Shown here piece after piece: positions 3,078 through 20,294 of a DNA stretch of 41,538 nucleotides; position 1 is the stretch's first letter, and the number at the start of each line of letters is the position of its first letter. Below the pieces are notes generated by a model. That model was not told the origin of the DNA. It searched no databases and worked only from the letters and a program-made list of their open reading frames with translations. Source of the DNA: a virus; the IMG/VR virus record IMGVR_UViG_3300045988_148476, one strand, 5' to 3'. The translations under genes and the position numbers were made by a program.

Positions 3078-3290
3078 CTATTGCCTAGACCACGTTCCGC
3101 AGTCCTGAAGTTTGAGCTGTTGGCCATCCGAGACAGTCACTTGTGGGTAGCCACCGCCTGGAATGTCGTTCTGTACTATGTCGGCTCCATTGTTGACTGT
3201 GATTTCCCAATAGCACTGAGAAGGCACCTGCGAATTAGCACGGTATGTCCCGGCCTCTATTCTTTTATTCCAAAGTTGTATCGCTTCCAT
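3078..3290 (-). CDS. Small hypothetical protein (about 70 aa; ORF open to 3320)
   Basis: Fills the gap between the lipoprotein gene and the 2251-3060 gene on the same strand. Overlaps the lipoprotein 3' end. No recognisable motif. Could instead be a frameshifted continuation of the lipoprotein gene. Confidence 0.4.
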   Translation of the reverse strand: MEAIQLWNKRIEAGTYRANSQVPSQCYWEITVNNGADIVQNDIPGGGYPQVTVSDGQQLKLQDCGTWSRQ

Positions 3291-3855
3291 CAGCGGGACA
3301 TGTCGCCACATCCCGGCCATCGATGGATAGCGTCGCGTTCCACTTGATGCCGGTGCCGCGAATATCCTGGTTGGGAAGCAACGCGTAGAAGGTGCCGTCC
3401 TGAAGCGTCACCAAATCATTCCAGGTTCCGAGATTATTCTGCTTGCTTGTTTCCATGTCGAACACGCCCACAGAGGTTTCATGGGAGTTGACTATGTTTT
3501 TGAAGCCTGCCTGCCATGATTCTCCAGCATCATTTGTGAACATGATGAAATAACCGTAGAAGTCGCTCGTTTGTATCAGATTGTTGTTCGGTATTTCAAC
3601 TTGAATTTTGTATGAGTTGGTGTTGACCTTCACCGATTGGAGTCTTGGATCAGAGCCGGAACATTCGCCGTGCAGGCCATTATCAATCAATGGTTCCTGA
3701 CCGTCTTCAGAATTGGTCCCTTTAATGGCATCTTCGGCTTCCGACTGGGTTTCAGCTTTGTCGGCGGCTGTCGATTCCTTACTCACGCCACAGGCAGTGA
3801 GGAATCCGAACATTAATAGCAATGCTACAACTGCGGTTACTTTCTTTCCGTGCAT
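3265..3855 (-). CDS. Secreted lipoprotein (prophage-expressed; candidate superinfection-exclusion factor)
   Basis: Signal peptide with lipobox MHGKKVTAVVALLLMFGFLTAC-G. Mature part is beta-rich. Lower G+C. Sits in the repressor operon. Confidence 0.85.
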   Translation of the reverse strand: MHGKKVTAVVALLLMFGFLTACGVSKESTAADKAETQSEAEDAIKGTNSEDGQEPLIDNGLHGECSGSDPRLQSVKVNTNSYKIQVEIPNNNLIQTSDFYGYFIMFTNDAGESWQAGFKNIVNSHETSVGVFDMETSKQNNLGTWNDLVTLQDGTFYALLPNQDIRGTGIKWNATLSIDGRDVATCPADGSDTTLE

Positions 3856-4259
3856 GTCTTATCCTTTCCCTGCGCAACAGCTCCGTTATGCAGCAGTTCT
3901 TTGTAATCTTCCACGACCTGTACGGTCACGTCGAGCGCCTGTGCGATGAGGAAACTGTCTCCCTCGTACATTTGTTCGGCGATTGCGTATTCGGTCGGGT
4001 TGATGAGTCGGAGCACGGTTTCGCGTCTGGCTCGTCTCTCGGCTTTTGACCCGTTCGGGTCGCAGCCTCGATCGTGGTGCCTAGCGTGAGCAAGCTCGTG
4101 GGCGAGCGTGCAACGTCGGGCGAAGTCTGGGAGCGTCTCGTCGATGATGATGAGTCGCGTGGGTTCGTAGTAGCAGCCGCAGCGTCCGGGCGATAGTTCT
4201 CGTTCCCGGACTTTGACGCCGAGTCTCAACGCTTCGGCGAGTAGATCCTCATATCCCAT
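3837..4259 (-). CDS. ImmA/IrrE-family zinc metallopeptidase (anti-repressor protease)
   Basis: HExxH motif in TLAHELAHARHHD. Lies directly downstream (8 nt) of the XRE repressor, as in immR-immA modules. Start chosen at MGYEDLL (4259). Confidence 0.85.
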   Translation of the reverse strand: MGYEDLLAEALRLGVKVRERELSPGRCGCYYEPTRLIIIDETLPDFARRCTLAHELAHARHHDRGCDPNGSKAERRARRETVLRLINPTEYAIAEQMYEGDSFLIAQALDVTVQVVEDYKELLHNGAVAQGKDKTCTERK

Positions 4260-4266
4260 AAAGCCT

Positions 4267-4647
4267 CTATTCGCGGGGTGTGGTGGCTTCGTTTTCCTTG
4301 TTTGGGTCGTCGTTCGCGGCCACGTCGAACTGTTCTGGGTTGGCGGCAATGCGGTCGGCCATCTCGTCGGCGGCGCGTTCCGCCTCGATGCGGCTGGCCT
4401 CGGCGAGTATGTCTCTCACCGTCTGCACGGGGTCAGCGCCGCATACGTCACAGATAAGCAGGAACTCAGAGAGCCTGACAGGAGCTTTAAGGCCATTGCG
4501 AATATCGCGCACGCGGTTATAGCCGATAGAACTTTTTGAGGCCCTGTCGACGGCGGAGTTATTCATGCCAGCGCGCTCGATTACCCGATTCATCGCCTTT
4601 GCGGCCACCTCATCTACGAGATTCCGCTCTCTCTTGTTCGTTGCCAT
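4267..4647 (-). CDS. XRE-family (cI-like) phage repressor
   Basis: HTH segment (AGMNNSAVDRASKSSIGYNRVRDIRNG). Divergent from the early operon across an operator-bearing intergenic region. Start at MATNKRE (4647). Confidence 0.85.
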   Translation of the reverse strand: MATNKRERNLVDEVAAKAMNRVIERAGMNNSAVDRASKSSIGYNRVRDIRNGLKAPVRLSEFLLICDVCGADPVQTVRDILAEASRIEAERAADEMADRIAANPEQFDVAANDDPNKENEATTPRE

Positions 4648-13943: not shown

Positions 13944-14134
13944 CCAGCGAACGCCGCAAGCAAATGGTCCGCGACTGGCACGCCAAACATGCCGCCACAC
14001 CCGAAGAAACAGCCCAACTACTAGGCATCACCCTTCAGGAAGTCCAAGACATCCTCAACCAAAACAAAGAACAACAAACCAAGACAGACAAACCGGCGCT
14101 CGCCGGCGGCTGTGAGGACAGGCCGCTGTTCTGA
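13940..14134 (+). CDS. Small HTH-like protein (64 aa)
   Basis: ATGA overlap at 13940. Segment PEETAQLLGITLQEVQDIL resembles an HTH. Confidence 0.55.
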   Translation: MTSERRKQMVRDWHAKHAATPEETAQLLGITLQEVQDILNQNKEQQTKTDKPALAGGCEDRPLF

Positions 14135-14207
14135 AATAACGAAACCCTCCACCAACGGCGGAGGGCATGTCTGCAAACAACCAGTGTAGCCGACGTGGAG
14201 GGGATTC

Positions 14208-14966
14208 GTGAACTGTCAGAACTGCAAGACGATGACCGAAGAGGGGTATTCGCTGTGCGAGACGTGCGAGATGCGCCTCGCCGGCACATTATTGCGATTG
14301 GCGCGTGACGTCACGCCATTGCATGACAGCCTCGACGCCACATTGCATCCGGGCGGGCATTCGCCGGTCAGGATCCAGACCGCCACTCCCCCGACGCCGA
14401 TACGCTTGGACGTGCTCGACCTGATCGACATGCTCGACGCGACAGCGCGCGAACTATGGCGCTGCCTCGACGGCATCGACGCCTTGGACTGGCACAGGGA
14501 TCCACGCATGGAGGACCTCGAGGCCACGCTCATCGCATGCGCCGGACATCCCAAACTCGCCACATTCCCCGACGCAGGCCTCTACATGCGCATCGTCAAC
14601 AACCTTGCCCGCAAGGTCGACCTCGCATTGGACCCGCCCGAACAACGCCGCGAGATCGGCACCTGCGAACTATGCGAGACCATGCTAACCGCAGGACAGG
14701 CAGACCAATGGGTCACATGCCCCGTCTGCGGCACCGAACAGCGAGTGCAGACCGTGAAACTGAGACGTTTGAAGAAACTCTGCTGGGATGATTCCAAGCA
14801 AGGCAGAGCGGCGGACATCGCCAAGGCGTTCACCGACGCCGGAATAACTCTCAAGGCGTCGCTGGTACGCAAGTGGGCGGAGCGAGGCCAAGTCGCACGC
14901 ACTCCGCAGGGTATTCCCTACAGCGATGTGTACCGGCAGGTCATCGCCGGCCAGCTTGACAAATGA
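14208..14966 (+). CDS. Double zinc-ribbon protein with C-terminal HTH-like region; candidate late-gene regulator
   Basis: CQNCKT...CETCE and CELCET...CPVCG motifs. C-terminal ADIAKAFTDAGITLKASLVRKWAERG. It is the last gene before the terminator and moron. Confidence 0.7.
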   Translation: MNCQNCKTMTEEGYSLCETCEMRLAGTLLRLARDVTPLHDSLDATLHPGGHSPVRIQTATPPTPIRLDVLDLIDMLDATARELWRCLDGIDALDWHRDPRMEDLEATLIACAGHPKLATFPDAGLYMRIVNNLARKVDLALDPPEQRREIGTCELCETMLTAGQADQWVTCPVCGTEQRVQTVKLRRLKKLCWDDSKQGRAADIAKAFTDAGITLKASLVRKWAERGQVARTPQGIPYSDVYRQVIAGQLDK

Positions 14967-15003
14967 TTGTTTGTCACACACAATTGCAGTGGCAGAAGTG
15001 TCG

Positions 15004-15034
15004 AAAAACCCAGCTCATGTGGCTGGGTTTTCGC
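15004..15034 (+). terminator. Rho-independent terminator ending the early operon
   Basis: AAACCCAGC-tcatgtg-GCTGGGTTT (15006-15014 / 15022-15030) followed by TTCG. Confidence 0.75.
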
Positions 15035-15159
15035 GTATCTGACCTCTAGGTGTTCCGGCCAATCCCCAGCGGCCGGAGCACCAAACCCCCGATATCGATG
15101 TAGAATCGATGACATAACCGTAAACTACATTGGTGTCGTTCTAGCTGGGGAGCAACGAT

Positions 15160-16206
15160 ATGGTCAGGAGCACTGTCGACTACTACACTTTCAACGTTAA
15201 GCCAAGAAAAAAGAGCCCCAATATTCCTCGCAGTGCCGTGAACCTTGGGAACGGACGCAGCATACTCCCCTACCTATATGGATACATCGATTATCAGCGT
15301 GGAAGAATTATCAAAGAAGAACGCAAGCAGCGCCTCTATGCGGTCCGTAACGTTGAAATTCACGGTCGCCTCATACTGATTGAGCTGATGTCCGGACAGT
15401 ACGGCGAGGAAAGCCAGCTGATGAACATGTTGGACGGGTCGGTCACGGACATCCCATCCGACCAAGCAGCAGTAAAGACCGTCCGTGTTGTATTTGCTTG
15501 TCCCATAGCGGATGGTGCGACTAATGCGATATTCGCTATTGAACATGTGGACTCGATTAATGGATATTACTTTATTCAAGATTTTGCCAAGTGCATAAGA
15601 AAAATATTCAGTGATTCAAACTCTCCGATTCATTCCATTTTGGAAAAAGAGGCATGGTTCGACTCAAGCAGCCTTGTGTCAATGGCAATACCCATCGGTT
15701 CGACGGATCAGCAAATCACATTGGATAACGGCATAGCCGACGAAGATGTTGAGCGAACCTTCGGCCGCATGTCCTTGATTATCAACCCGCCGAAAGGTAG
15801 CGCCAGCTTCGACCCGAGATTCTGGAAAAAGATGTTGAAGCACACATTGGAGAAGGCAGGCATGCTGACTATCCCGGCCCTCGATAATGACACCGTCGAG
15901 AAAACCAACGTATCCGTAACCGCAATCGGCGCAGACAACCGTCGTAAGACCTTCACCATAGGCAATGAGAAAAGCCCGAAAGTACGTGAACTGATTACCG
16001 ACTACGGACAGCCAAGACTCGATAATGGTGCGCTACGACGCCATCTCGCCGATTCAATCCTCGATAAATATGCAGAAAGCCAAATTAAACTCCAATCCGG
16101 ATGGGATAAGGGACAGCTTGGAGAAGAGCTGATACCGAAAGGAGAAATCGACTGGGCCAATCTTGTTGAGCCCAAGCCGGAGGAAAACAATCATGCCGAG
16201 GACTAA
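15160..16206 (+). CDS. Uncharacterised 348-aa soluble protein (moron gene A)
   Basis: ATG at 15160, 7 nt after GGGGAG. G+C is clearly lower (sampled 33-40%) than the phage backbone. No family motif that I can assign. Confidence 0.85.
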   Translation: MVRSTVDYYTFNVKPRKKSPNIPRSAVNLGNGRSILPYLYGYIDYQRGRIIKEERKQRLYAVRNVEIHGRLILIELMSGQYGEESQLMNMLDGSVTDIPSDQAAVKTVRVVFACPIADGATNAIFAIEHVDSINGYYFIQDFAKCIRKIFSDSNSPIHSILEKEAWFDSSSLVSMAIPIGSTDQQITLDNGIADEDVERTFGRMSLIINPPKGSASFDPRFWKKMLKHTLEKAGMLTIPALDNDTVEKTNVSVTAIGADNRRKTFTIGNEKSPKVRELITDYGQPRLDNGALRRHLADSILDKYAESQIKLQSGWDKGQLGEELIPKGEIDWANLVEPKPEENNHAED

Positions 16207-16753
16207 AGACCATAACAATGGCATATTATGGCAGTACATCCTCAGCCTGTGCCCCAAGATACACAACACAAGAAGCATCGCATGGAAATACGTATTCCGA
16301 GAAATACTCATTCCATCGGTTGCTGCATATCTTGACTTTCGCTTCTCCCGACTTGCATTGAACGCAGACATCATCGTCTCGGCTTTGGGGGTCCTTGGAG
16401 GCCTTCTGTTTGCGCATGCGATCTTCGTTTTCGAATTGCGAATGACGTACAACGCAAACCTACGGGAAAGAATCAGAAACAAAGAGATACAGGCAGAAAA
16501 CACAAAACTGACCAGACTCATCAACGATATGTTCTATAGTGTCGTCTACTCATCCGCATTGGCTCTGGGGATTACACTTGCCGTGGCCATGGGATCTTCC
16601 CTTGGCGTATACGACACACTGCCGCAGATAGGGAAAAAACTGATATCGGCGGCGATTGTATGGCTAATGACACACTTAGCATTCTGCATTTATCGAGTTC
16701 TCAAAACCACATCCGGCGCATACGGAGAACTACGAAAATCAAGAATCGCATAA
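16193..16753 (+). CDS. Uncharacterised 186-aa three-TM membrane protein (moron gene B)
   Basis: ATG at 16193, 8 nt after GGAGGA, overlapping the end of gene A by 14 nt. TM helices: IIVSALGVLGGLLFAHAIFVF, MFYSVVYSSALALGITLAVAMG, LISAAIVWLMTHLAFCIYRVL. Confidence 0.8.
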   Translation: MPRTKDHNNGILWQYILSLCPKIHNTRSIAWKYVFREILIPSVAAYLDFRFSRLALNADIIVSALGVLGGLLFAHAIFVFELRMTYNANLRERIRNKEIQAENTKLTRLINDMFYSVVYSSALALGITLAVAMGSSLGVYDTLPQIGKKLISAAIVWLMTHLAFCIYRVLKTTSGAYGELRKSRIA

Positions 16754-16814
16754 TGTCAACAACGAGATAGCAATGTGGTTCATCTGACAGTCGAAGGAGA
16801 TATCGTGATGACCT

Positions 16815-17162
16815 ATGGGGCCACGGGGCATGAGGGGCATGGGACACGGCAGACAGCGAACTAACTGGAACTCCAGCAACAGAGGTTCACGACTGCCGGA
16901 TGACTGGCCCGAGCGCAGGGCCAAGGTGCGCGGACGGGCTCATGGTCTGTGCCAAGCGAAACAGCATGTTCCCGAATGCGATGGAATCGGCACTGACTGC
17001 GACCACATCATCGCCGGCGACGACCACAGCCTTGACAACTTGCAATGGCTGTCGCATCCTTGTCATAAAGCGAAAACGGAGCGTGAGAACGCAGAGAGGA
17101 ACGCCAAGCGCAAGCGAATGCGAAAACATCCGGAGGAACGTTTCCCCGGCCTGCTCGACTGA
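16815..17162 (+). CDS. HNH endonuclease (packaging-associated, upstream of terminase)
   Basis: CQAKQHVPECDGIGTDCDHIIAGDDHSLDNLQWLSHPCHKAKT. This is the typical HNH-TerS-TerL arrangement of cos-type HK97-like phages. Confidence 0.85.
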   Translation: MGPRGMRGMGHGRQRTNWNSSNRGSRLPDDWPERRAKVRGRAHGLCQAKQHVPECDGIGTDCDHIIAGDDHSLDNLQWLSHPCHKAKTERENAERNAKRKRMRKHPEERFPGLLD

Positions 17163-17383
17163 CCCAAGCGGGGTGGGAGGGGACTCCCCCGGCTTGCCGG
17201 TAAAACCGCCGGATAGCACCTCCGGTCATGCATGCGCCCAGAACGCCCGTTTTTCGCGATATCTCATTTTTATCGGAACCTTCCCTGCTGTACCGTTCTT
17301 GGCGGCTTTATTCGCCGTATGGAGCCAAGTGGCGTTTTCGCGCGGCTCGGACAGGCTGGTCGGCGCTCGTTTTTTTATGTGAT

Positions 17384-17467
17384 GTCACGATATTGAAGAA
17401 TCGTTGATATTGCACTGTTTTGTTGTTTTATTAGCGTTGTCACGATATAATTAAAGCGTGACACGAT
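17384..17467. repeat. Three copies of TG(T/A)CACGAT(AT) around the late promoter (17384-17394, 17438-17448, 17459-17467)
   Basis: TGTCACGATAT occurs twice exactly, 54 bp apart. TGACACGAT overlaps the GTG start of the next gene. Confidence 0.7.
17423..17451 (+). promoter_or_regulatory. Sigma-70-type promoter (TTGTTT -17 nt- TATAAT) positioned for a leaderless transcript starting at the GTG at 17458
   Basis: -35 at 17423-17428 and -10 at 17446-17451. Only 6 nt separate the -10 from the GTG, and there is no SD. Confidence 0.5.
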
Positions 17468-18078
17468 GTGAATTTTGCGACAAGGAACTCCCCGAAGCCC
17501 AGAGACGGGGACGCAAGCGCCGGTTCTGCGACGACCGGTGCCGCCAAGCCGCGCACAGGGCCGGAGGGCAAATGCCCGTACCTCCCGCGATGGCGATGGC
17601 CGACCGCTGGATGCACTGGCGCAGAATCACCCGCGGCGACGGCACATCGAAACTGCCGGTCACCGTCGACGGCTCCCCCGCATCCAGCACCGACATGTCC
17701 ACATGGGCCGCGCTTCCCCAGGCGGAATCCTCCGATGTCGGCGAAGGTCTCGGATTCGCGCTCGGCGACGGATTCGCATGCATCGACCTCGATCACTGCT
17801 ATGACGAGCGCAACCATCTGACCCCGTGGGCGAAGATGCTGATAGCCCCCGTGGCCGATTCCACATGGATCGAAATCAGCCCGTCCGGAAACGGACTGCA
17901 CATCTGGGGGCGCTGCGGCGAGCGAACCGGACTGAAGGTCCGCAACGACCTCGGCATGAACATCGAGGCCTACAGCCAAGGCCGTTACATGACCTACACG
18001 GGGCACAGGTTCCGCAAAAGTCCCGCGAAACTCGCCGATCTCACATTCCTGTTCGACGTGATCGCACATCTCGCCTGA
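17458..18078 (+). CDS. Stand-alone AEP-type primase-polymerase (Prim-Pol domain) with N-terminal zinc ribbon
   Basis: CEFCDK...RRFCDDRC, DxD motif in ACIDLDHC, SPSGNGLHIWG, and IEAYSQGRYMTYTG. Confidence 0.8.
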   Translation: MTRCEFCDKELPEAQRRGRKRRFCDDRCRQAAHRAGGQMPVPPAMAMADRWMHWRRITRGDGTSKLPVTVDGSPASSTDMSTWAALPQAESSDVGEGLGFALGDGFACIDLDHCYDERNHLTPWAKMLIAPVADSTWIEISPSGNGLHIWGRCGERTGLKVRNDLGMNIEAYSQGRYMTYTGHRFRKSPAKLADLTFLFDVIAHLA

Positions 18079-18099: not shown

Positions 18100-18498
18100 T
18101 TGCCAAGACCAAGAAAAACGTCCGGGCACCGCATGCCCTCCGGACTCATGAAGGACGGCAAGGGGCAGACCCTGTGGCGCGACCTGACCGGCAAATGGGA
18201 GTTCACGGAATCCGAATACCGGATGCTGGAGAACGCCTGCTACACCGCCGACCGCATCGTCAAGGAACGCCGCGCCATCGGCGACGACCTGACCGTCTCC
18301 GGCAGCCAGGGACAGATCGTCGCGCACCCGCTGCTCGCGCAACTCAGGCTCGACGAGGAGCACCTCGCCAAAACGCTCTCCCGCATCGTCATGCCGGAAC
18401 CCGACGAGAAGGAAAACGCCGCCACCGATGAGGGCGACAGGTCTGCCAGGATGCGCGACGCGGCCCAATCACGGTGGGGAAAGGCATACGGTGGATGA
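18100..18498 (+). CDS. terS: Terminase small subunit (P27-like)
   Basis: TTG at 18100 after GAAAGGAGG. 132 aa. LWRDLTGKWEFTESEYRMLENACYTADRI pattern. Sits immediately upstream of TerL with an ATGA junction. Confidence 0.75.
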   Translation: MPRPRKTSGHRMPSGLMKDGKGQTLWRDLTGKWEFTESEYRMLENACYTADRIVKERRAIGDDLTVSGSQGQIVAHPLLAQLRLDEEHLAKTLSRIVMPEPDEKENAATDEGDRSARMRDAAQSRWGKAYGG

Positions 18499-20294
18499 TG
18501 GCGAGGCTGCTGACCAATCGATCCGCAGCCTACATCCCCTCCCATCAAGCCGAATACCGGGAAATCATCGACTGGTACCGCAACGCGCTGGCCAACGAAC
18601 CCGCACGCGACTGGAACACCAACCCGGTCACCATCGGGCCCACATGGAAGCACGACGGCGACGGCTGGGTTTTGCCCGATCTCACTTTGGGTTGGAACTT
18701 CCTGGCTTGGAGCGGCCGCTGGCTGCGCAACGCCAAACAGCGCGCCCCATGGAAGTGGACGCTCGAACAGGCGCGTTTCTGGCTGTGGTTCTACAGTCTG
18801 GACGAACATGGCGTGCCCGTCCACGATAACGCGGTGCTGCAGCGGCTCAAGGGTTGGGGCAAAGACCCGATGGCGGCCGGCGGTGCCGTCGCCAGCTGCT
18901 TCGCCGACCTGACCTTCGACCGGTTCGACCATAACGGCGATCCGGTCGGCCGCGAGGAACCGAACGCCTGGGTGCAGGTGTGCGCAGTCTCGCAGGAACA
19001 GACGAAGAACACGATGAAACTGCTGCCCGGCCTCATCCCCGCCGAAACCCGGCGCAGGTACGGCATACAGCTCGGCAAACTCAACATGTACGCGCTCGGG
19101 GACAGCCGCCAGATAGAGGCCGTCACCTCAAGCCCGCTCGCATTGGAGGGCGGACGTCCCACGTTCCTGATCCGCAACGAGACGCAGAACTGGAATTCCA
19201 GCAACGGCGGCCACGACATGGACGGCGTGCTGTCCGGCAACGCGGCGAAGTCCGAGGAATCGGTGAACGTGAAGATGCTCGACATCTGCAACGCTTACCG
19301 AGACGGCGAGGACAGCGTCGCCCAAAGGGTGCGCGAGGCATGGGAGGGCACGCAGGGCGACCCGAACAGCAACGATCAGGGTCTGCGGCCGAAATACATG
19401 GATTACGGTCTGCTCTATGACAGCATCGAAGCCGCGCCGGACACCCCCATGACGGTGGACATGATTCCGAAGGTCATCGAGGACGTGCGCGGAGATTCCA
19501 CGTGGCTGACCACATCGAAGATCGTCAAGACCATCATCGACCCGAAGAATCCGGTCTCCGAAAGCCGACGCAAATGGTACAACCAGTGCGAGGCCCCGGA
19601 AGACGCCTACGTCACCAGCCAGGAATGGGATGCCAACGAGCATCCCGAGCTCAAGCTGGAGGCCGGCGAGGAGATCACGATGTTCCTCGACTGCTCACTG
19701 ACCGACGATGCCACCGCCTTGGTGGCCTGCAGGGTCAGCGACGGTTTCACGAAGCCGCTCGGCCTATGGAAAAGGCCGCCCGGCAAACGCGGCGAAACAT
19801 GGAAGGTGCCACGCGAAAGCGTGGATGACACCGTGCGAGAAGCCATGCGCATCTACCGGGTGGTCGCCTTTTGGGGAGACCCCAGCCACGTGCTGGACGA
19901 CGAGACCGGCCTGCACTATTGGGATCCCCTGTTCGATGCCTGGCATCGCGAATACGGGCGACGATTGAAGCTCTGGGCGCGGCCCGAGGGCCGTGACAGG
20001 CACAGCATCATGTTCGACATGGTTCGCCTCGACGTGCAGAAAAGGTTCGTCACCTATGTGGACCAGGCGTACACGGCGATCTGCGACAAGGATTTCCCCC
20101 ATGACGGTGACGCGAGATTGCGTTCCCACATGCTCAACGCGCGCCGCCAGCCCACGAAGGCGGGCATGAGTATCGCCAAGGAGGGGCGCGAGTCCCAACG
20201 GAAGATAGATCTCGCGTTCTGCGCCATTGCCGCGCGCGGCATGCGACGCGAATATTTGAACAACCGGAAGAAAGGCGGTGGACAGGTATGGTGA
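18495..20294 (+). CDS. terL: Terminase large subunit
   Basis: About 600-aa ORF between TerS and portal. ATG at 18495 overlaps the TerS stop (an alternative GTG lies at 18474). Called mainly on size and synteny. Confidence 0.88.
   Translation: MMARLLTNRSAAYIPSHQAEYREIIDWYRNALANEPARDWNTNPVTIGPTWKHDGDGWVLPDLTLGWNFLAWSGRWLRNAKQRAPWKWTLEQARFWLWFYSLDEHGVPVHDNAVLQRLKGWGKDPMAAGGAVASCFADLTFDRFDHNGDPVGREEPNAWVQVCAVSQEQTKNTMKLLPGLIPAETRRRYGIQLGKLNMYALGDSRQIEAVTSSPLALEGGRPTFLIRNETQNWNSSNGGHDMDGVLSGNAAKSEESVNVKMLDICNAYRDGEDSVAQRVREAWEGTQGDPNSNDQGLRPKYMDYGLLYDSIEAAPDTPMTVDMIPKVIEDVRGDSTWLTTSKIVKTIIDPKNPVSESRRKWYNQCEAPEDAYVTSQEWDANEHPELKLEAGEEITMFLDCSLTDDATALVACRVSDGFTKPLGLWKRPPGKRGETWKVPRESVDDTVREAMRIYRVVAFWGDPSHVLDDETGLHYWDPLFDAWHREYGRRLKLWARPEGRDRHSIMFDMVRLDVQKRFVTYVDQAYTAICDKDFPHDGDARLRSHMLNARRQPTKAGMSIAKEGRESQRKIDLAFCAIAARGMRREYLNNRKKGGGQVW

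Follow-up and report, generated by a model that had tools for sequence, protein, structure and literature searches.

Lambda RexAB causes abortive infection of heterotypic phages, and the literature groups actinobacteriophage systems with it as 'RexAB-type', of which five were counted as described in a 2026 paper (PMC12894663). In two of the actinobacteriophage systems, genes 43/44 of Gordonia phage CarolAnn and genes 30/31 of Mycobacterium phage Sbash, each pair is both required and enough to defend against particular heterotypic phages and is expressed in lysogeny (Montgomery 2019, PMC6426606; Gentile 2019, PMC6426596), and neither CarolAnn gene is toxic alone (PMC6426606). Escape mutations map to early genes of the attacking phage, gp53 of Kita and gp132 or gp141 of Crossroads, and Kita gp53 is toxic only when gp43 and gp44 are present (PMC6426606, PMC6426596). 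In the published model infection is sensed by the soluble protein, and the four-transmembrane (four-TM) protein that it then activates serves as an ion channel (PMC6426606, PMC6426596); Sbash gp30 and CarolAnn gp44 are dimers whose binding to double-stranded DNA is non-specific (PMC11077077). Here a two-gene module, genes A and B, is compared with these systems. It is found in a viral DNA of 41,538 nucleotides (IMG/VR record IMGVR_UViG_3300045988_148476; the whole stretch is called the window below) that is a temperate Bifidobacterium phage or prophage, and it is probably a moron acquired horizontally, whose two products would form an exclusion or abortive-infection system belonging to the 'Rex-like' family of actinobacteriophages.

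Gene A (15160-16206, + strand) encodes a soluble, mildly acidic protein of 348 amino acids (aa; pI 6.0), the 'RexA-like' component, and gene B (16193-16753, + strand) encodes a basic, four-helix membrane protein of 186 aa from its ATG (pI 9.9), the 'RexB-like' component. When a 56-sequence profile of the A family was compared by hhalign with one of CarolAnn gp44, Sbash gp30 and Sejanus gp46, the two aligned with a probability of 99.5% (E 1.6e-22) over 311 collinear columns, near full length, and a reversed-sequence control reached 0.3%. In HMMER searches the A profile scored 288 bits with gp44 of Gordonia phage DumpsterDude, 97 with Sejanus gp46, 91 with Sbash gp30 and 57 with CarolAnn gp44. 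A tblastn search of 50,697 phage records returned DumpsterDude gp44 as the sole match to A (E 4e-10, 93% coverage) and DumpsterDude gp43 as the sole match to B (E 1e-3); Toast gp42 was absent from the tblastn matches of both A and CarolAnn gp44. By these alignments A is placed securely in the CarolAnn gp44/Sbash gp30 family.

Comparison of B with the full 181-aa open reading frame (ORF) of DumpsterDude gp43 gave an hhalign probability of 98.6%, and comparison of a narrow B profile with CarolAnn gp43, Sbash gp31 and Sejanus gp45 gave 12.7%; with broader or divergent B profiles the values for the latter were 64.8% (E 6e-5, 125 columns) and 86% (E 5e-6, 137 columns), in collinear alignments. Controls with reversed sequences gave 0.2-0.3%, and the four-TM RexB gave 0.1%. 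These values suggest that B is a homologue of DumpsterDude gp43 and probably the highly diverged cognate membrane partner of A and a distant homologue of CarolAnn gp43 and Sbash gp31.

An earlier note on this DNA had proposed that the pair matched no recognised system and was the best candidate for a new one. The comparisons above overturn that proposal, because A is homologous to the soluble half of validated Rex-like pairs that have the same gene order and sizes; the homology to an already-named defence family (CarolAnn gp44, Sbash gp30) is the kind of finding that the note itself had set against novelty. Its other comparators, Kiwa (KwaA/KwaB) and SLATT-type effectors, likewise found no support, since neither A nor B has a match to them in PADLOC or Pfam. 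The broader suggestion that an abortive-infection or exclusion module is the best reading has held, supported by the pairing of a soluble with a small membrane protein and by the defence contexts described below.

In their architecture the CarolAnn gp44/gp43 and Sbash gp30/gp31 pairs resemble A/B: in each, a soluble protein of 330-370 aa is encoded first and is followed, on the same strand, by an overlapping gene for a four-helix membrane protein of ~165-190 aa, the overlap being 26 nucleotides (nt) in CarolAnn and 14 nt in A/B, and all are prophage cargo in Actinomycetota. They differ in that the hhalign identity is ~14-16%, the invariant TM motif of B is not the same, and the host of A/B is Bifidobacterium. 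Position differs as well, since the CarolAnn pair is co-transcribed with the repressor and the Sbash pair lies near the lysis cassette, whereas A/B is located at the early/late junction with a promoter-like region of its own. DumpsterDude gp44/gp43, the only cultured-phage match to both proteins, belongs to the same subfamily as A/B, with 21% and 28% identity, respectively. Its genes run on one strand as immunity repressor gp45, gp44 and gp43, a cI-rexA-rexB layout, so the DumpsterDude pair directly follows the repressor and the pair in the window does not. DumpsterDude gp44 has been listed as RexA-like, and this phage is among those reported to have Rex homologues (Adams et al. 2024, PMC11077077, Suppl. 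Figs S9-S10).

The relationship to lambda itself is one of design. Lambda RexA and RexB resemble A/B in that a soluble partner precedes a four-TM partner and the pair is carried by a prophage, and the proteins are smaller (279 and 144 aa versus 348 and 186 aa). Neither A nor B matched the Pfam models of RexA (PF15969) or RexB (PF15968) at E<=1, nor did 56 A-family members at E<=0.1, and the CarolAnn, Sbash, Sejanus and DumpsterDude proteins had no match to Pfam RexA, RexB or DUF4747; as a positive control, lambda RexA and RexB matched their own models at 1e-97 and 8e-92. Four-sequence RexA and RexB profiles, built from lambda, Klebsiella, Hafnia and Salmonella phages, gave hhalign values of <=0.2%. 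DUF4747, for which weak HHpred matches to gp44, gp30 and RexA have been reported, was not matched by A or 56 A-family members in hmmscan searches. The repressor-rexA-rexB layout of DumpsterDude is also not seen in the window, where the module follows a zinc-ribbon gene ~10 kb from the integrase/IrrE region. As no relationship was found by any test, 'Rex-like' is used here as a statement of how the system works and not of ancestry shared with lambda.

Conservation of A and B as a pair was assessed in 24 loci plus the window, which together comprise 17 distinct gene contexts because several contigs are near-identical copies. In 17/17 of these contexts a member of the A family has a B-family gene behind it on the same strand, usually overlapping or abutting it. 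The paired loci include Bifidobacterium-type phages related to the window (L001-L006 and L007), a chromosomal locus beside an Ltp-type lipoprotein gene (L008-L011), a prophage in a 499-kb metagenome-assembled genome (MAG; L012/L013), another phage (L015), a defence island (L014) and DumpsterDude (L016). When species-representative genomes were searched with the B alignment, only a Collinsella MAG and Bifidobacterium cuniculi (L021, L022) were found, both with the pair, and in four loci picked via distant A representatives (L027-L030) the partner genes match the B hidden Markov model (HMM) at E 1e-11 to 1e-31. The A/B pair moves as a unit among prophage cargo slots, chromosomal loci and defence islands.

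Two of these contexts contain neighbours of note. In L014 (159-15596) A/B lies between AbiEi/AbiEii, a PDC-S41/Nhi-like helicase, a MazG-like gene and an Hma-type system that consists of an HmaA-like SNF2 helicase, an HmaB-like DUF1156 methylase and DUF499; the A gene of this locus is called at 234 aa only and may be truncated or frameshifted. In L008 (4807-5443, - strand), and also in L009, the lipoprotein gene (PF07553) is ~1.5 kb from the chromosomal pair. PF07553 is the family of the TP-J34 superinfection-exclusion protein.

Within the window the module has the properties of a self-contained unit. The two ORFs overlap by 14 nt on the same strand; a GGGGAG Shine-Dalgarno sequence (15147-15152) precedes the start of A by 7 nt, and a GGAGGA Shine-Dalgarno sequence (16179-16184) precedes the start of B by 8 nt, within the 3' end of A. 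Both sites and the overlap are as the earlier note had described them, and the placement of the second site inside A predicts translational coupling of the two genes. The segment 15035-16790 has a G+C content of 48.1%, compared to 61.2% for the remaining sequence, and it is the lowest-G+C stretch of 1756 nt in the 41.5 kb (mean of such stretches 60.8%, standard deviation 3.3%). G+C at third codon positions is 0.53-0.55 in A and B versus 0.66-0.82 in the adjoining genes. A sharp drop to 33-40% had been suggested from 60-nt stretches; the drop itself is real, and those low values apply only to the lowest such stretches, the range being 32-62% with the majority at 42-58%. With its composition, its own upstream region and the 17/17 paired contexts, the description of A/B as compositionally foreign, self-contained two-gene cargo of a temperate phage is supported. 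A megablast search of 14000-18000 against phages gave no match, an Rfam scan of 14900-16900 gave nothing credible, and no convincing terminator was seen 3' of B.

The region upstream of A contains several candidate regulatory elements. A terminator-like hairpin (15008-15034, + strand), formed by an ACCCAGC-N7-GCTGGGT stem-loop at 15008-15028 and a subsequent TTTT, is placed so that it would close the upstream early operon and isolate the module. It folds at -18 kcal/mol (z = -3.1 versus shuffles), which bears out the strong terminator that had been noticed here, and it is also present in the related phage L001; a simple terminator scanner overlooked it because the stem is trailed by only 4 T. 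Downstream of the hairpin, a palindrome, TTCCGGCC-N10-GGCCGGAG (15053-15078, either strand), lies 5' of a -10-like box. It occurs once in the window, with 0 expected by chance. L001 retains it, and the L007 version carries two compensatory changes in the stem around a loop, AATCCCCAGC, that is identical; this element may be an operator or a leader hairpin. The -10-like hexamer TAGAAT (15101-15106, + strand), within GTGTAGAATC, is the candidate promoter of the module. Both it and the ATCGAT-gtaga-ATCGAT element reported earlier (15094-15110) are present, and TAGAAT is unchanged across the window, L001 and L007 despite A proteins that are only 50-62% identical. The hexamer was not called by a sigma-70 scanner, and no -35 element was recognised. 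The leader that follows (15107-15159, + strand), which includes the GGGGAG Shine-Dalgarno sequence, is kept in L001 and L007. Taken as a whole, the ~110 nt 5' of A (15053-15078 and 15079-15159) is better conserved than the A protein (50-62% aa identity).

Gene A encodes a protein with no hydrophobic or TM segment and no family match in Pfam (E<=1), NCBIfam, PHROGs or PADLOC, consistent with its first description as a soluble protein without an assignable motif. A word search found five clusters at 90% identity, and a profile search of 1.84 billion representatives found 166 members (82 at E<=1e-10). Full-length members have ~300-350 aa, shorter entries look like fragments, and the ~166 clusters of the A/B family at 50% identity are nearly all from Actinomycetota and their phages. 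The protein is conserved along its entire length, and Glu128 is invariant. Its structural model (predicted local distance difference test, pLDDT, 74.5; predicted TM-score, pTM, 0.65) gave 0/807 Foldseek matches in the PDB at E<=0.001, with TM-scores of ~0.07-0.15, and no RexA or RdgC entry was among the 50 matches listed. In BFVD the model had four matches only, all to uncharacterised phage proteins, and the A-family HMM had 0 matches at E<=10 among all PDB sequences.

Gene B encodes a protein with strongly hydrophobic segments at residues 58-83, 113-140 and 149-169, from which three TM helices had been proposed. A fourth helix (31-51) is weakly hydrophobic in the window copy (Kyte-Doolittle maximum 1.18) and clearly hydrophobic in homologues, and the AlphaFold2 model has four long helices (pLDDT 82), so a four-helix membrane protein is the more fitting description of B. 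The alignment of the B family, which has at least 49 clusters, reveals an invariant intramembrane motif of 15 residues, GVLGGLLFAHAIFVF-x-LR, together with a conserved His161 and a T..AY close to the C-terminus. B had no match in Pfam (E<=1), NCBIfam, PHROGs or PADLOC, and Foldseek searches of its model against the PDB returned generic helical bundles only.

Genes of the B family are often mis-annotated. DumpsterDude gp43 (L016, 6920-7465) is annotated at 115 aa, and a 181-aa ORF overlapping gp44 aligns with B over its full length; gene callers missed B in L007 (4155-4727) and called an opposite-strand ORF instead of it in L027 (5903-6499).

By analogy with the studied homologues, A and B would be expressed from the prophage via the TAGAAT promoter, and A, as a dimer in the cytoplasm, would sense an early product of the superinfecting phage. 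A would then activate B, which would damage or depolarise the membrane, with the intramembrane GVLGGLLFAHAIFVF-x-LR motif as its likely gate or pore-lining element. ATP would drop, macromolecular synthesis would halt and the infection would abort, so that the lysogen population is protected.

Several points weigh against this proposal. The function assigned to the A/B subfamily is predicted from sequence, and the assignment of DumpsterDude gp44/gp43 is likewise a bioinformatic call. The identity of A to the experimentally tested proteins is low (~14-16% in the hhalign alignment), the link of B to gp43 and gp31 is no more than moderate, and spurious similarity arises easily among membrane proteins. 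No sequence or fold similarity of A/B to lambda RexA/RexB was found with profiles or Foldseek. The module is flanked by the early and the late lytic operons at ~10 kb from the immunity region, and the pointers to its expression in lysogeny are indirect, namely the upstream terminator and the conserved -10-like box and leader; as no terminator is evident after B, the two genes could simply be transcribed in the lytic programme. As to mechanism, the ion-channel step has never been directly demonstrated for any actinophage system (PMC12894663, PMC7542560), the Pseudomonas putida RexAB system damages the membrane without depolarisation (PMC12894663), and in Mycobacterium phage Butters the effector appears to be the soluble protein (PMC7542560).

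The Butters system provides the best-surviving alternative, in which A would be the effector that acts on phages, for instance through binding to DNA or to replication intermediates, and B would sequester or restrain it until infection releases it. Like A/B, Butters gp30/gp31 is a soluble and four-TM pair in a prophage cargo region, with a proposed mechanism that is inverted: gp30 alone blocks PurpleHaze and gp31 attenuates this activity (PMC7542560). RexA-like proteins also bind DNA non-specifically (PMC11077077), and Butters gp30 has a marginal, partial match to the A profile (hhalign 38%, 88 columns; HMMER 13.9 bits) in the N-terminal domain around the invariant Glu. Nevertheless, the A profile matches CarolAnn gp44 and Sbash gp30 (57-97 bits) far better than Butters gp30 (14 bits), CarolAnn and Sbash need both genes, and Butters gp31 has no similarity to B, whose 15-residue invariant intramembrane motif suggests an activity of its own and more than a role as an anchor. 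An inverted arrangement in A/B is therefore considered unlikely, though it is the alternative that deserves most attention.

A second possibility is that the pair serves phage development, either by biasing the switch between lysogeny and lysis, as has been proposed for lambda RexA, or with B modulating lysis timing in the manner of a holin or antiholin. Through DNA binding, lambda RexA promotes the lytic state (PMC11077077), Butters gp31 has weak holin-like HHpred matches (PMC7542560), and the location of the module inside the lytic gene order, with no terminator seen after B, fits such a role. The pair is also found in non-prophage chromosomal loci and a defence island, however, and in the window it adjoins neither the repressor nor the lysis genes. 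In addition, A/B is dispensable for phage development because it is lacking from the closely related Bifidobacterium phage Bbif-1, and a developmental role is accordingly held to be improbable.

The equivalent slot of Bbif-1 contains a HicA-like toxin cassette, which could indicate that A/B is a toxin-antitoxin or addiction cassette, with B as the membrane toxin and A as the antidote to it, so that the pair would stabilise the prophage rather than sense phages. The overlap of A and B is typical of such pairs, which would also be consistent with their occurrence outside prophages. This arrangement is improbable given that scans of Pfam, PADLOC, PHROGs and NCBIfam revealed no toxin-antitoxin family, that A, at 348 aa and conserved in full length, is large for an antitoxin, and that the homologous CarolAnn genes are not toxic singly (PMC6426606). 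Thus, the toxin-antitoxin, switch-control and lysis proposals all rank lower because the pair occurs outside prophages, is dispensable in a relative and has CarolAnn homologues that are non-toxic singly.

Finally, it is scarcely credible that A/B is an unrelated, categorically new two-gene defence system, to which the lack of Pfam, NCBIfam, PHROGs and PADLOC matches and of a PDB fold match for A or B might point, since A is strongly homologous to CarolAnn gp44 and Sbash gp30 in profile and HMMER comparisons, which refutes this unless the alignments are structurally spurious, and the DumpsterDude homologues have already been published as Rex-like. The empty database scans might suggest novelty, an argument that is discounted because CarolAnn gp44 is equally invisible to Pfam and PADLOC; the lack of any match for A or B in PADLOC-DB v2.0.0 (E<=1) is uninformative because this release misses CarolAnn gp44 too.

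With a Rex-like exclusion or abortive-infection system as the preferred reading, what is new is a strongly diverged member whose host group (Bifidobacterium and Collinsella) is new and whose place in the prophage differs, the system itself being already known; the novelty that remains lies in the breadth of the family, the lack of a solved structural relative of A and the invariant intramembrane motif of B. The Sbash/CarolAnn lineage widens considerably, to a family spread across the Actinomycetota (~166 clusters at 50% identity) that is undetected by Pfam, NCBIfam, PHROGs and PADLOC, reaches gut commensals such as Bifidobacterium and Collinsella, and appears in defence islands. In the literature searched, no link was found between Rex-type systems and Bifidobacterium prophages. 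Phage resistance in Bifidobacterium bears on probiotic strains and infant-gut ecology, and the module is a clonable candidate for prophage-mediated defence. Glu128 of A and the TM motif of B are testable residues that relate to the mechanism of the family (channel, membrane damage or soluble effector).

A more tentative proposal is that the A/B family and the Sbash/CarolAnn systems together form an independent two-component abortive-infection lineage unrelated to lambda RexAB, with a sensor fold that has no PDB match and an effector that acts via GVLGGLLFAHAIFVF-x-LR and the conserved His. If this were the case, 'Rex-like' would describe convergence and not homology, and the B motif could define a new gated pore or membrane-disrupting element.

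The genes around the module help to define the slot that it occupies. Near one end, the window encodes a tyrosine integrase (106-1290, - strand) and an IrrE/M78-like gene of the immunity region (3837-4349, - strand); a ParB-like early gene, an SPP1-type portal and a tape measure are also encoded. Directly 5' of the module is the last early gene (14208-14966), which encodes a 252-aa double zinc-ribbon protein (phrog_8013, weak DUF7341). On its 3' side, the HNH/terminase block extends from 16815 onward and includes TerL (18474-20294), which is 83.6% identical to TerL of Bbif-1. In Bbif-1 the same slot, after a homologous zinc-ribbon gene, holds a YcfA/HicA-like cassette in place of A/B. This makes the early/late junction a slot for variable cargo, where A/B is an insertion with respect to this close relative; the same slot houses A/B in other prophages (L001, L007, L012 and L015).

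The Bbif-1 cassette (L023, 2785-3564) consists of a YcfA/HicA-family gene, a gene for a 14.8-kDa protein and a small regulator. The cargo slot comes after a zinc-ribbon gene in the window, L001, L007, L012/L013 (as DUF7341) and Bbif-1, and this gene is a useful landmark for the hotspot. Elsewhere in the window, a second low-G+C (~47-50%), cargo-like ORF of 196 aa (3265-3855, - strand), which has no Pfam or PADLOC match, lies directly downstream of the IrrE/M78-like gene. At the right end, a gene for a ClpP-like SDH-type serine protease of the NfeD family (PF01972; 40167-41057, - strand), which lies in a region of lowered G+C (~51-52%) and for which there is no PADLOC match, is possibly a further lysogeny-expressed cargo gene.

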